Shown here: one piece after another, positions 32,831 through 50,637 of the stretch
How positions within the stretch are numbered: position 1 is the stretch's first letter
Layout: each line of letters opens with the position of its first letter
Made by a program: the position numbers and the translations under genes
Source of the DNA: Escherichia coli
Lineage (GTDB): Bacteria; Pseudomonadota; Gammaproteobacteria; Enterobacterales; Enterobacteriaceae
Strand: one strand, 5' to 3'
NCBI RefSeq assembly: GCF_003334315.1
Contig: NZ_QOWR01000019.1
DNA length: 64,000 bases
Notes under the pieces: generated by a model
Told to the model about the DNA's origin: nothing
The model's database searches: none
What the model saw: the letters and a program-made list of their open reading frames with translations, nothing else

Positions 32831-35107
32831 ATGCTCAATCAAGAACTGGAACTCAGTTTAAATATGGCTTTCGCCAGAGCGCGCGAGCACCGTCATGAGT
32901 TTATGACCGTCGAGCACTTGTTACTGGCGCTGCTCAGTAACCCATCTGCCCGGGAGGCGCTGGAAGCGTGTTCTGTGGATTTGGTTGCGCTCCGTCAGGA
33001 ACTGGAAGCCTTTATTGAACAAACCACACCCGTTCTGCCTGCCAGTGAAGAGGAGCGCGATACACAGCCGACGCTGAGTTTTCAGCGTGTACTGCAACGT
33101 GCGGTCTTCCATGTCCAGTCCTCCGGTCGCAATGAGGTTACCGGTGCAAACGTTCTGGTCGCTATCTTTAGCGAACAGGAGTCGCAGGCGGCATATCTGT
33201 TGCGTAAACATGAAGTCAGCCGTCTCGATGTGGTGAACTTTATCTCTCATGGCACGCGTAAAGACGAGCCGACACAGTCTTCTGATCCTGGCAGCCAGCC
33301 AAACAGCGAAGAACAAGCTGGTGGGGAGGAACGTATGGAGAATTTCACGACGAACCTGAACCAGCTTGCGCGTGTGGGCGGAATCGACCCACTGATTGGT
33401 CGTGAGAAAGAGCTGGAGCGTGCTATTCAGGTTCTCTGCCGTCGCCGTAAAAACAACCCGCTGCTGGTGGGGGAGTCTGGTGTCGGTAAAACCGCGATTG
33501 CAGAAGGTCTTGCCTGGCGAATTGTTCAGGGTGATGTGCCGGAAGTGATGGCTGACTGTACGATTTATTCTCTCGATATCGGTTCTCTGTTAGCGGGCAC
33601 AAAATATCGCGGCGACTTTGAAAAACGTTTTAAAGCGTTGCTCAAGCAGCTGGAGCAGGACACTAACAGCATCCTGTTTATTGATGAGATCCACACCATT
33701 ATCGGTGCGGGTGCAGCGTCTGGTGGTCAGGTCGATGCGGCTAACCTGATCAAACCGTTGCTCTCCAGCGGTAAAATTCGCGTAATTGGTTCGACAACCT
33801 ATCAGGAGTTCAGCAACATTTTCGAGAAAGACCGTGCTCTGGCGCGTCGCTTCCAGAAAATTGATATTACTGAACCGTCGATCGAAGAAACTGTTCAAAT
33901 CATCAATGGCCTGAAACCGAAGTATGAAGCGCACCACGACGTGCGTTATACCGCAAAAGCGGTGCGTGCGGCGGTAGAGCTGGCGGTGAAATACATTAAC
34001 GATCGTCATCTGCCGGATAAAGCCATTGATGTTATCGACGAAGCGGGCGCTCGCGCACGTCTGATGCCGGTAAGCAAACGCAAGAAAACCGTTAATGTGG
34101 CGGATATTGAGTCCGTGGTGGCCCGTATTGCACGCATTCCAGAGAAGAGTGTTTCTCAGAGTGACCGCGATACCCTGAAAAACCTCGGCGATCGCCTGAA
34201 AATGCTGGTCTTCGGCCAGGATAAAGCCATTGAGGCGCTGACTGAAGCCATTAAGATGGCGCGTGCAGGTTTAGGTCACGAACATAAACCGGTCGGTTCG
34301 TTCCTGTTTGCCGGTCCTACCGGGGTCGGGAAAACAGAGGTGACGGTACAGCTTTCGAAAGCGTTGGGCATTGAGCTTCTGCGCTTTGATATGTCCGAGT
34401 ATATGGAACGCCATACCGTCAGCCGTCTGATTGGTGCGCCTCCGGGATACGTTGGTTTTGATCAGGGCGGTTTGCTGACTGATGCGGTCATCAAGCATCC
34501 ACATGCGGTTCTGCTGCTGGACGAAATCGAGAAAGCGCACCCTGACGTGTTCAATATTCTGTTGCAGGTGATGGACAACGGTACGCTGACCGATAACAAC
34601 GGACGCAAAGCGGACTTCCGTAACGTGGTGCTGGTGATGACCACCAACGCCGGGGTACGTGAAACTGAGCGTAAATCCATTGGTCTTATCCACCAGGATA
34701 ACAGCACCGATGCGATGGAAGAGATCAAGAAGATCTTTACACCGGAATTCCGTAACCGTCTCGACAACATTATCTGGTTTGATCATCTGTCAACCGACGT
34801 GATCCATCAGGTGGTGGATAAATTCATCGTCGAGTTGCAGGTTCAGCTGGATCAGAAAGGTGTTTCTCTGGAAGTGAGCCAGGAAGCGCGTAACTGGCTG
34901 GCCGAGAAAGGTTACGACCGGGCAATGGGCGCTCGTCCGATGGCGCGTGTCATCCAGGACAACCTGAAAAAACCGCTCGCCAACGAACTGCTGTTTGGTT
35001 CGCTGGTGGACGGCGGTCAGGTCACCGTCGCACTGGATAAAGCGAAAAATGAGCTGACTTACGGATTCCAGAGTGCACAAAAGCACAAGGCGGAAGCAGC
35101 GCATTAA
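32831..35107 (+). CDS. clpA: ATP-dependent Clp protease ATP-binding subunit ClpA
   Basis: ORF track 32816..35107; start set to the ATG at 32831 ([19 protein letters not shown]...), 758 aa; two AAA+ modules (GESGVGKT and GPTGVGKT). Confidence 0.95.
33323..33337 (+). promoter_or_regulatory. clpA: Internal translation-initiation site in clpA (Met169) with its own Shine-Dalgarno; reported to yield the shorter ClpA65 product
   Basis: GGAGGA at 33325-33330 followed by an in-frame ATG at 33335-33337 (codon 169). Internal initiation in clpA is established knowledge, recalled from memory. Confidence 0.55.
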
Positions 35108-35132
35108 TCTGATTGTCAGGTAGGTTGGTCAA

Positions 35133-35169
35133 GTCCGTAATCTCGAAAGAGGTTACGGACTTTTTATTT
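35133..35169 (+). terminator. Rho-independent terminator of clpA
   Basis: Hairpin GTCCGTAATCTCGAAAGAGGTTACGGAC (35133-35160) followed by TTTTTATTT. Confidence 0.8.
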
Positions 35170-35318
35170 ATGGGGTGGAACGGTGAAAACCCTATTTTTG
35201 GAGGTGAAGGTAAGTTGTTGATAATTAGTGCTGCTGGAAGGTAAGGATAAAAAAGGGTGCTGCAGGAGAATGGGATGGTTTTGCTTTATTAACAACGGGC
35301 TAAACGTGTAGTATTTGA

Positions 35319-35523
35319 GTTCACTGCCGTACAGGCAGCTTAGAAAAACCTACCGTCTTGGCTAGCGGTTGCAGCGAACGTTCACTGCCGTACAGGCAGC
35401 TTAGAAAGGAACAATCTTGCAAAGGCTGTGAAAGTTGGCGTTCACTGCCGTACAGGCAGCTTAGAAATTCACAGGTAACATACTCCACCCACCATGTTCA
35501 CTGCCGTACAGACAGATAAAATG
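35319..35523 (+). CRISPR. Orphan (cas-less) type I-F CRISPR array: 3 full 28-bp repeats plus 1 degenerate terminal repeat, 3 spacers
   Basis: Repeat GTTCACTGCCGTACAGGCAGCTTAGAAA at 35319-35346, 35380-35407 and 35440-35467; degenerate copy GTTCACTGCCGTACAGACAGATAAAATG at 35496-35523. Spacers are 33, 32 and 28 bp. AT-rich putative leader at 35170-35318. No cas genes: clpA lies upstream, tRNA-Ser and infA downstream. Confidence 0.92.
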
Positions 35524-35525
35524 CG

Positions 35526-35556
35526 AAAAAAAAGCTCGCACTTTCGTACGAGCTCT
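35526..35556 (-). terminator. Rho-independent terminator downstream of tRNA-Ser
   Basis: Minus-strand hairpin GAGCTCGTACGAAAGTGCGAGC followed by TTTTTTTT. Confidence 0.8.
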
Positions 35557-35566
35557 TCTTTAAATA

Positions 35567-35654
35567 TGGCGGTGAGGGGGGGATTCGAACCCCCGATACG
35601 TTGCCGTATACACACTTTCCAGGCGTGCTCCTTCAGCCACTCGGACACCTCACC
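35567..35654 (-). tRNA. serW: tRNA-Ser (long variable arm, 88 nt)
   Basis: Minus-strand sequence GGTGAGGTGTCCGAGTGGCTGAAGGAGCACGCCTGGAAAGTGTGTATACGGCAACGTATCGGGGGTTCGAATCCCCCCCTCACCGCCA; T-arm GGTTCGAATCC, encoded CCA end; GGA anticodon inferred. Position between clpA and infA matches serW. Confidence 0.9.
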
Positions 35655-35840
35655 AAATTGTTTTGCTGCCAAACCTCATGGGTGGCAACGGGGCGCTACT
35701 ATAGGGAGTTGGAGTAAAACGGTCAAGAAGAATTTTAATGATAATTATTGTTTGCTCATACTGTAAACAACTTGTGCAGTATATCTACATCGAGACAAGT
35801 TATGGACTTATACTTCCAAAGTACTTCATACATATCACAA

Positions 35841-35866
35841 AATAAAAAGGCCGGTTAAACCGACCT
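35841..35866 (-). terminator. Rho-independent terminator of infA
   Basis: Minus-strand hairpin GGTCGGTTTAACCGGCC followed by TTTTT, just downstream of the infA stop. Confidence 0.75.
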
Positions 35867-42906: not shown

Positions 42907-45900
42907 TTGAGCCAGGAATACACTGAAGACAAAGAAGTCACATTGACAAAGTTAAGTAGCGGCCGCCGCCTTCTGGAGGCGTTGCTGATCCTTATTGTCC
43001 TGTTTGCCGTCTGGTTGATGGCTGCCTTACTAAGCTTTAACCCTTCGGACCCCAGCTGGTCGCAAACGGCCTGGCATGAACCTATCCATAATTTAGGTGG
43101 GATGCCCGGTGCGTGGTTGGCAGATACGCTGTTCTTTATTTTTGGCGTGATGGCTTACACCATTCCCGTCATTATTGTCGGCGGTTGTTGGTTTGCCTGG
43201 CGTCATCAGTCCAGCGACGAATACATTGATTATTTTGCCGTTTCGCTACGCATCATTGGCGTTTTGGCGCTCATCCTTACCTCCTGTGGTCTGGCGGCAA
43301 TCAACGCTGACGATATCTGGTATTTTGCCTCCGGTGGCGTCATTGGCAGCTTACTAAGCACTACGCTACAACCACTGCTACACAGTAGCGGGGGAACTAT
43401 TGCGCTGCTCTGCGTTTGGGCAGCGGGCCTGACGTTGTTCACCGGTTGGTCATGGGTGACCATTGCTGAAAAACTCGGCGGCTGGATTTTAAACATTCTC
43501 ACCTTCGCCAGTAATCGTACCCGTCGCGATGATACCTGGGTCGATGAAGATGAGTATGAAGACGACGAAGAGTATGAAGATGAAAATCACGGCAAACAGC
43601 ATGAATCACGCCGTGCCCGTATTCTTCGCGGCGCGCTAGCGCGTCGTAAACGGTTGGCGGAAAAATTCATTAATCCGATGGGGCGGCAAACAGACGCTGC
43701 GTTGTTCTCCGGTAAGCGGATGGATGATGACGAAGAGATTACCTACACTGCACGCGGTGTGGCTGCCGACCCGGACGACGTCCTATTTTCGGGCAATCGT
43801 GCAACGCAGCCAGAATATGACGAATACGATCCATTATTAAACGGTGCGCCAATTACCGAACCTGTCGCTGTAGCAGCTGCTGCTACCACGGCGACACAAA
43901 GCTGGGCTGCGCCGGTTGAACCTGTGACTCAGACGCCGCCTGTTGCCTCTGTTGATGTTCCACCTGCGCAACCTACAGTAGCCTGGCAGCCTGTACCGGG
44001 TCCACAAACGGGAGAGCCGGTTATTGCTCCTGCACCGGAAGGTTACCCACAGCAGTCACAATATGCGCAGCCTGCATTGCAATATAATGAGCCGCTGCAA
44101 CAACCAGTACAGCCGCAGCAGCCGTATTATGCACCTGCAGCTGAACAACCTGCGCAACAGCCGTATTATGCCCCTGCGCCAGAACAACCGGTGGCAGGTA
44201 ACGCCTGGCAAGCCGAAGAGCAGCAATCCACTTTTGCTCCACAGTCTACATACCAGACTGAGCAAACTTATCAGCAGCCAGCCGCTCAGGAGCCGTTGTA
44301 CCAACAGCCGCAACCCGTTGAACAGCAGCCTGTTGTGGAGCCTGAACCCGTTGTAGAAGAGACAAAACCCGCGCGTCCGCCGCTTTACTACTTTGAAGAA
44401 GTTGAAGAGAAGCGAGCCCGTGAACGTGAACAACTTGCGGCCTGGTATCAACCGATTCCAGAACCGGTTAAAGAACCAGAACCGATCAAATCTTCGCTGA
44501 AAGCACCTTCTGTTGCAGCAGTACCTCCAGTAGAAGCCGCTGCCGCTGTTTCCCCGCTGGCATCTGGCGTGAAAAAAGCGACACTGGCGACGGGGGCTGC
44601 CGCAACCGTTGCCGCGCCAGTCTTCAGTCTGGCAAATAGCGGTGGACCGCGTCCTCAGGTCAAAGAGGGGATTGGTCCGCAGTTGCCACGACCGAAACGT
44701 ATCCGCGTGCCAACTCGTCGTGAACTGGCGTCTTACGGTATTAAGCTGCCCTCACAGCGTGCGGCGGAAGAAAAAGCCCGTGAAGCCCAGCGCAATCAGT
44801 ACGATTCTGGCGATCAGTACAACGATGATGAAATCGATGCGATGCAGCAGGATGAACTGGCACGTCAGTTCGCCCAGACACAGCAGCAACGCTATGGCGA
44901 ACAGTATCAACATGATGTGCCCGTAAACGCAGAAGATGCAGATGCTGCGGCAGAGGCTGAACTGGCTCGTCAGTTTGCGCAAACTCAACAACAACGTTAT
45001 TCCGGCGAACAACCGGCTGGGGCGAATCCGTTCTCGCTGGATGATTTTGAATTTTCGCCAATGAAAGCGTTGCTGGATGATGGTCCACACGAACCGTTGT
45101 TTACGCCAATTGTTGAACCTGTACAGCAGCCGCAACAACCGGTTGCACCGCAGCAGCAATATCAGCAGCCGCAACAACCAGTTCCGCCGCAGCCGCAGTA
45201 TCAGCAGCCACAACAGCCGGTTGCGCCGCAGCCACAATATCAGCAGCCGCAACAACCGGTTGCGCCACAGCAGCAATATCAGCAGCCGCAACAACCGGTT
45301 GCGCCGCAGCAGCAGTATCAGCAGCCACAACAGCCAGTTGCGCCACAACCGCAGGATACCCTGCTTCATCCGCTGTTGATGCGTAATGGCGACAGCCGTC
45401 CGTTGCATAAACCGACGACGCCGCTGCCTTCTCTGGATTTGCTGACACCGCCGCCGAGCGAAGTGGAGCCGGTAGATACCTTTGCGCTTGAACAAATGGC
45501 TCGTCTGGTGGAAGCGCGTCTGGCTGATTTCCGTATTAAAGCCGATGTCGTCAATTACTCTCCGGGGCCGGTTATCACTCGCTTTGAACTTAACCTGGCT
45601 CCTGGCGTAAAAGCGGCGCGCATTTCTAACTTGTCACGGGACCTTGCCCGTTCACTTTCGACGGTGGCGGTGCGTGTCGTTGAAGTTATTCCTGGCAAAC
45701 CCTATGTAGGTCTGGAGTTACCAAATAAAAAACGACAAACCGTTTATCTGCGCGAAGTTTTGGATAACGCCAAATTCCGCGATAATCCGTCGCCATTAAC
45801 CGTGGTGCTGGGTAAAGATATCGCCGGTGAGCCGGTGGTTGCCGATCTGGCGAAAATGCCGCACTTGTTGGTTGCGGGGACTACCGGTTCCGGTAAATCT

Positions 45901-50399: not shown

Positions 50400-50423
50400 T
50401 ACCCAATTTTTCTGAATCTAAAA

Positions 50424-50446
50424 AGCGCCTGCGGGCGCTTTTTTTG
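50424..50446 (+). terminator. Rho-independent terminator of serS
   Basis: Hairpin AGCGCC-TGCG-GGCGCT followed by TTTTTTT. Confidence 0.8.
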
Positions 50447-50453
50447 TCTCCCT

Positions 50454-50467
50454 TTGATACCGAACAA
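50454..50467. promoter_or_regulatory. FNR binding site of the dmsABC promoter
   Basis: TTGATACCGAACAA matches the FNR consensus TTGAT-N4-ATCAA in 8 of 10 half-site positions; about 170 bp upstream of the dmsA start. Identity with the known dmsA FNR site is from memory. Confidence 0.55.
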
Positions 50468-50637
50468 TAATTACTCCTCACTTACACGTAATACTACTTT
50501 CGAGTGAAAATCTACCTATCTCTTTGATTTTCAAATTATTCGATGTATACAAGCCTATATAGCGAACTGCTATAGAAATAATTACACAATACGGTTTGTT
50601 ACTGGAATCAATCGTGAGCAAGCTTGAGTGAGCCATT

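Follow-up and report, generated by a model that had tools for sequence, protein, structure and literature searches.

Most strains of Escherichia coli retain a small CRISPR array between clpA and serW that lacks cas genes. In cas-less strains, a short array has been described whose spacers match the Cas1, Cas3 and Csy2 genes belonging to its own subtype, and a role in blocking incoming CRISPR-Cas systems was proposed for such arrays (Touchon & Rocha 2010; PMC2886076). As later papers summarise Almendros et al. (2016, Nat Microbiol), native orphan arrays are constitutively expressed without cas genes (PMC8616872), interfere with plasmids bearing I-F cas genes, and trigger primed acquisition of further spacers (PMC8616872, PMC13142298). 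The arrays are named CRISPR4.1-2, in locus CRISPR-III, by the Mojica group (PMC3903273), and CRISPR3 by Touchon & Rocha (PMC2886076). In the features that these accounts convey (Touchon & Rocha 2010, PMC2886076; Almendros 2016 via PMC8616872), orphan CRISPR4.1-2 arrays are short, sit at the clpA-infA site, lack I-F cas genes, carry the I-F repeat with a conserved terminal copy, and hold spacers with an I-F PAM against the Cas1 and Cas3 genes of subtype I-F (Ypest). The array described here is like them in each of these respects.

Strains with a type I-F system (B7A, 2015C-3905 and UTI89) carry it at the same site, in the order clpA, leader, CRISPR4.1, cas1f-cas3f-csy1-csy2-csy3-cas6f, serW. 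The cas-linked CRISPR4.1 arrays of these strains and of LF82 resemble the array of the window (by which we mean the whole 64-kb stretch of E. coli DNA that was analyzed) in their site downstream of clpA, their homologous leader and their identical repeat. Unlike the window array, they comprise 8-15 repeats, end in a terminal repeat that reads …GGCAGTATTCACA, and are followed by the cas operon. The annotation of the UTI89 record (NZ_CP062985) gives csy2 (L002 5359-6282) as a pseudogene interrupted by an internal stop, and the I-F system of this assembly may therefore be inactive. In 2015C-3905, a two-repeat CRISPR4.2 remnant, made up of GTTCACTGCCGTACAGGCAGCTTAGAGA and a copy with four mismatches, lies between serW and infA (L003 17229-17316); the serW-infA interval of the window (35736-35843) contains no repeat and measures 108 nt, compared with 397 nt in 2015C-3905.

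The window array occupies positions 35319-35523 on the + strand and lies between clpA and serW, as an earlier note on this DNA had placed it. Downstream of the clpA stop codon (35105-35107), a terminator scan and an inverted repeat both mark the intrinsic terminator of clpA (35131-35162, +), a 14-bp stem followed by a T run, which sets the upstream limit of the leader. The leader itself (35163-35318, +) is 156 nt long and AT-rich (39.7% GC against 51.6% over the whole window), and it is homologous to the leaders of cas-linked arrays, with 142/157 positions identical to cas+ 2015C-3905 and B7A and 134/157 to UTI89. On the other side of the array, an intrinsic terminator of serW recovered by the terminator scan (35526-35561, -) begins 2 nt past the terminal repeat, and serW, encoding tRNA-Ser(GGA) (35567-35654, -), forms the downstream boundary of the locus.

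Three exact 28-nt type I-F repeats, a degenerate fourth and three spacers make up the array, in the arrangement that the earlier note had described. Repeats 1 to 3 (R1, 35319-35346; R2, 35380-35407; R3, 35440-35467; all +) are perfect copies of GTTCACTGCCGTACAGGCAGCTTAGAAA, each scoring 50.1 bits (E=4e-10) on the Rfam CRISPR-DR4 family (RF01317), so that three direct consensus repeats stand above its gathering score of 35, where at least two are expected of a type I-F array. The terminal repeat (R4, 35496-35523, +), GTTCACTGCCGTACAGACAGATAAAATG, is identical to R1-R3 at 22/28 positions and, at 20 bits, falls below that score; all four hits are on the + strand. Between the repeats lie unique spacers of 33 nt (S1, 35347-35379, +), 32 nt (S2, 35408-35439, +) and 28 nt (S3, 35468-35495, +), close to the ~32 nt usual for such arrays, and the repeats follow one another at a regular spacing of 61, 60 and 56 nt. 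R1-R3 are predicted to form the 5-bp stem and 5-nt loop that constitute the Cas6f recognition element (CUGCC-GUACA-GGCAG, -8.6 kcal/mol).

No I-F Cas protein finds a real match in the 64-kb window. A tblastn search with six proteins returned noise in place of the cas1f, cas2-3f, csy1-3 and cas6f genes that adjoin a cas-linked array, and its apparent cas3f hits are the spacers themselves. The absence of nearby cas genes that the earlier note reported is borne out, and the array stands at the clpA-infA position without them, as orphan CRISPR4.1-2 arrays do. The rest of the window consists of ordinary core genes, from grxA to focA. Over 63.5 kb it is 99.89% identical to E. coli CP53, and the array locus is 100% identical; the two are not the same sequence, as 58 mismatches and one 12-nt gap separate them. 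The annotation of nfsA as a pseudogene in CP53 does not apply to the window, where nfsA is intact, and the pseudogene calls of CP53 were not transferred. The 12-nt gap, the only one in the 63.5-kb alignment, probably lies within imperfect tandem repeats in the ftsK linker (window ~45112-45354), where self-matches offset by 39-51 nt are 87-94% identical and a 12-nt offset is seen among the self-matches. Elsewhere in the window, Rfam hits above the gathering score were obtained for STnc130 (50413-50547, -; 140 bits), naRNA4/CssrE (10320-10400, +; 75.5 bits) and ES036/CssrF (9298-9340, +; 42.2 bits).

The distal end of the array separates it from the cas-linked loci. Homology between the window and cas+ loci resumes at the serW terminator, which in those loci lies 72 nt past the cas6f stop. 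Formation of the cas-less junction by simple deletion from a cas+ locus is unsupported, as neither the end of the cas+ array nor the sequence past cas6f contains a counterpart of the 10-nt sequence ATAAAATGCG. The first 20 nt of R4 are repeat-derived, and its final 8 nt read ATAAAATG. In 10/10 other cas-less loci sampled, the terminal repeat likewise closes with …GGCAGATAAAATG, and this occurrence in all ten marks most of the divergence of R4 as an old feature rather than ongoing decay.

The earlier note had taken the 28-bp last spacer and the decayed terminal repeat as signs of an eroded leader-distal end. Both features are present, but the last 8 nt of R4, being common to all sampled cas-less loci, do not belong to the erosion. 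What does belong to it is a 4-nt deletion in S3, relative to the intact form found in K-12, O157:H7 and IAI39, and a lineage-specific change in the terminal repeat. S3 corresponds to the 32-nt K-12 spacer TTCACAGGTAACATACTCCACCCGCCCACCAT minus 4 internal nucleotides. The change in R4, G17A, is limited, among the arrays that were compared, to the window, K-12, KMi012 and E41, and because of it the R4 hairpin is predicted to fold with only -1.4 kcal/mol, compared with -8.6 for the intact repeats. The array of K-12 BW25113 (L004) is identical to that of the window in its leader-proximal repeat and in its terminal repeat including G17A, and it has a spacer of the same anti-cas1f lineage. It differs in having this as its single spacer, intact at 32 nt, whereas the window adds two upstream anti-cas3f units and has the anti-cas1f spacer cut to 28 nt.

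The earlier note had pointed to published proposals that orphan arrays between clpA and infA can carry spacers against I-F cas genes, and the window array proves to be such a case, with S1 and S2 matching cas3f, S3 matching cas1f, and a CC PAM at each protospacer. S1 matches the antisense strand of the B7A-type cas3f at 31/32 positions, with a mismatch at position 11 (protospacer at 9920-9951, minus strand, of the 2015C-3905 locus, L003). S2 matches the sense strand of the same allele type at 31/32 positions, with a mismatch at position 19 (protospacer at L003 10001-10032, plus strand). The two protospacers are 50 nt apart in cas3f, on opposite strands and with their PAMs facing each other, and lie ~1.5 kb from the older anti-cas1f protospacer. 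Aligned without gaps, S3 gives a weak match in cas1f; with gaps, it is recognizable as a 32-nt cas1f protospacer minus 4 nt, at an alignment score that 0/300 shuffled spacers reached. Within this spacer lineage, the IAI39/O157 form has one mismatch to UTI89-type cas1f, the K-12 form two, and the window form two plus the 4-nt deletion. The CC motif precedes all three protospacers on the leader-proximal side of the spacer-sense strand, in agreement with the I-F PAM and its side as defined for E. coli (PMC3506596), and given the CC frequency of 0.0555 in the I-F operon, three of three would arise by chance with P of about 1.7e-4.

The other main cas allele type is matched less closely. Against UTI89-type cas3f, S1 has mismatches at positions 2, 11, 19 and 20 with a CC PAM, and S2 at positions 10, 13 and 19 with a TC PAM; against UTI89-type cas1f, S3 is mismatched at positions 4 and 6, and the PAM is CC. 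In type I-F systems, the seed comprises positions 1-5 and 7-8 of the spacer, and a CC PAM is required. By these rules, both anti-cas3f spacers (S1, S2) look competent against the B7A-type allele, each having one non-seed mismatch and an intact PAM, and look weakened against the UTI89/B2-type allele, S1 by its seed mismatch at position 2 and S2 by the TC PAM. The S3 unit, with its 4-nt deletion, its seed mismatch at position 4 and the broken hairpin of the terminal repeat, is probably defunct by the same rules. A reading of the UTI89-type mismatches as escape mutations is unsupported, as 2-3 extra mismatches per 32 nt fit the background divergence between the B7A-type and UTI89-type alleles, which are 93.75% identical in cas3f and 96.1% in cas1f. 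The CC-to-TC change at the S2 protospacer, which replaces Pro with Ser in UTI89-type cas3f, is a single anecdote.

The search of the spacers against I-F cas genes, plasmids and phages that the earlier note had proposed found matches in the cas genes for all three. No spacer match was found at E<=10 among plasmids (PLSDB) or phages (INPHARED) when the three spacers were joined by N runs, a form of query that recovered all three protospacers in a local positive control. Within E. coli genomes, matches to the spacers fall only in copies of the same array or in I-F cas genes, with one exception, a 23-nt match of S3 (E=6) to a restriction-modification gene. For all three spacers, the best matches are I-F cas genes flanked by the I-F PAM, as in the published orphan CRISPR4.1-2 arrays.

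We surveyed 5,426 complete E. coli genomes for cas3f and for the spacers. The cas3f gene is present in 241 of them (40 B7A-type and 201 UTI89-type), always on the chromosome. S1 matches 732 genomes, made up of 491 with spacer copies and the 241 with cas3f, and S2 matches 762, of which 521 hold exact spacer copies, 40 a B7A-type cas3f and 201 a UTI89-type cas3f. Since 521, 40 and 201 account for all 762 matched genomes, the S2-bearing and cas3f-bearing sets do not overlap, and S2 occurs in 0/241 cas3f+ genomes, a non-overlap that is confounded by phylogeny and by the use of the same locus by both. The same counts leave no one-mismatch variants of S2 among its 521 genomes, because the 95-99% identity band is filled by the 40 B7A-type cas3f genomes. 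An apparent occurrence of the S1 spacer together with its cas3f target in one genome, KMi012, was rejected; KMi012 is one of 21 genomes with two S1 places, and the second place is a tandem duplication of the S1 repeat-spacer unit (L005 11912-12177). Two S2 places were seen in one genome, and in CB7453 the first spacer of the orphan array is duplicated.

A comparison of the array across genomes had also been proposed in the earlier note, which would have reduced the locus to an inert fossil had no spacer matched a cas gene or mobile element and had the identical array been present in every E. coli lineage. The array is neither universal nor inert in appearance, since its spacers have matches in cas genes and its content varies among lineages. 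Identity of at least 99% across the 601-nt locus is found in only 160 of 5,452 records, and K-12 has one spacer. S3 occurs in its 28-nt form in 327 genomes, and its K-12 and O157/IAI39 forms occur in 1,435 and 562 genomes, respectively. In ten further cas-less strains, drawn from divergent lineages, ten distinct spacers are present, all of which map to cas1f, cas3f or csy3 and have a CC PAM beside the match in one allele or more. Some lineages have fewer units, among them K-12, M171-1 and strain 9. In M171-1, which has S1 alone, and in strain 9, which has S2 alone, the unit adjoins a terminal repeat without G17A; these arrangements favor the loss of units from a longer ancestral array.

Additional elements occur beside some of the orphan arrays. 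A ~135-nt element annotated as 'RtT sRNA' lies between the array and serW in IAI39 (L006 715-851), GMF054 (L010 651-785) and M171-1 (L011 1555-1689), and it is absent from the window. In E. coli strain 9, the one-spacer orphan array is followed by a gene for a tyrosine recombinase/integrase (L012 2026-3228), and the 3.3-kb stretch fetched from this strain contains no serW, which points to an island inserted at the tRNA gene or close to it.

By every feature that can be tested in sequence, the window array is a member of the published orphan CRISPR4.1-2 anti-cas arrays, and as such is already known. Nothing essential differs between it and that set; the copy in this lineage is distinguished by the 4-nt deletion in the anti-cas1f spacer and by G17A. 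Lineage-specific details of this kind, namely the 33-nt S1, the shortened S3 and the altered terminal repeat, leave the picture unchanged. Like self-targeting spacers in general, the spacers of the window match chromosomal genes of their own species. They differ from them in that the target is the CRISPR machinery itself and is absent from the genome that carries them, and because of this absence no autoimmunity arises in the window strain.

We consider it probable that this orphan I-F array (CRISPR4.1-2, locus CRISPR-III), with every spacer directed against I-F cas genes, serves as an anti-cas barrier. The conserved leader would drive transcription of the array into a pre-crRNA, which would lie idle while I-F Cas proteins are absent. 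Were a mobile element to bring in an I-F cas operon, the Cas6f it encodes would cut the pre-crRNA at the repeat hairpins, and the Csy complex would take up the anti-cas3f and anti-cas1f guides and find the CC-flanked protospacers in the incoming cas genes. Cas2-3 would then degrade the incoming cas DNA, primed adaptation could add further spacers, and the cell would resist uptake of the I-F system. What this array itself contributes to the scheme is its anatomy, the absence of cas genes, the protospacers in cas genes with their PAMs, the homology of the leader, and the non-overlap of spacer and cas3f; expression, and interference or priming by orphan arrays, are carried over by analogy from the literature as summarized in PMC8616872.

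Several observations count against a barrier function. A standard scan found no promoter on the + strand, and a lenient scan returned one weak candidate (TTGGAG at 35198, a 16-nt gap and GATAAT at 35220), which at 8/12 matching positions is the best available and not a convincing sigma-70 promoter. The leader is also less conserved (86-95%) than the adjoining 3' end of clpA (97-99%), and none of the spacers has a perfect match among E. coli cas alleles. Lastly, the decay of the oldest unit, S3, in the window lineage argues against strong selection on that unit.

The strongest of the alternatives weighed, though an unlikely one, sees in the array an inert scar, left when an ancestral I-F system gained self-targeting spacers against its own cas genes, loss of the operon was favored by the resulting autoimmunity, and the array persisted by inertia with no present function, a view attributed to Diez-Villasenor 2010 in the discussion of it contained in PMC2886076. 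Such a history would fit the stepwise decay of the S3 unit, from one mismatch to two and then to two plus the 4-nt deletion, the break of the terminal hairpin by G17A, and the loss of units in lineages such as K-12, M171-1 and strain 9; that no strong promoter was found and that cas genes able to use the guides are absent would fit it as well. Against it, R1-R3 are perfect, S2 shows no one-mismatch variants among 521 genomes, and anti-cas spacers alone survive in every cas-less lineage sampled. No simple deletion from an extant cas+ locus, moreover, yields the junction of ATAAAATG, CG and the serW terminator, and native orphan arrays are reported, in the summary given by PMC8616872, to interfere with I-F-cas plasmids. 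An origin as a scar and a present function as a barrier are compatible and do not exclude each other.

It is very improbable that the array serves some other role, whether by supplying guides to a heterologous system, for instance an I-F3 CRISPR-associated transposon, or by buffering transcription or giving rise to small RNAs in the interval between the convergent genes clpA and serW. Arrays that are heterologous or orphan can be recruited by CRISPR-associated transposons (CASTs; PMC11300857), and the array does sit exactly between two convergent terminators, but its spacers match I-F cas genes only, save for the single 23-nt match of S3, and no CAST or other Cas component lies within the window. 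That the feature is a chance repeat or annotation artefact, as the absence of any CRISPR annotation for the clpA-serW array in CP53 or K-12 BW25113 (RefSeq/PGAP) might suggest, is refuted by three identical 28-mers at a regular 60-61 nt spacing with 50 bits each on Rfam CRISPR-DR4, and by the identity of these repeats to cas-linked repeats at the same locus in other strains, which together are far beyond chance. In CB7453, the annotation places a 'hypothetical protein' CDS across the orphan array (L007 426-884), on the other strand, and this call is probably spurious.

The array may possibly document an I-F invasion that was repelled in nature and not only be a relic of system loss, a reading that we hold tentatively and regard as somewhat doubtful. 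It is based on the observation that cas-less arrays share their terminal repeat and junction and differ in their anti-cas spacers, and on the geometry of the S1 and S2 protospacers, closely spaced on opposite strands, which in I-F systems is typical of acquisition that is primed or driven by interference. If this reading were true, orphan arrays would be updated in natural populations when cas-bearing elements are met transiently, and in the window lineage newer units would have superseded the oldest, which is decaying.

We claim no new biology for this locus, and the main value of the analysis lies in the correct annotation of a feature that RefSeq omits in CP53 and K-12. Orphan anti-cas arrays, the class to which it belongs, show that CRISPR-Cas can itself be the target of a CRISPR array. 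The strain of the window would be predicted to resist the B7A-type I-F allele more than the B2/UTI89 type, and arrays of this class help account for the rarity of I-F systems in E. coli, where only 241 of 5,426 complete genomes carry cas3f.
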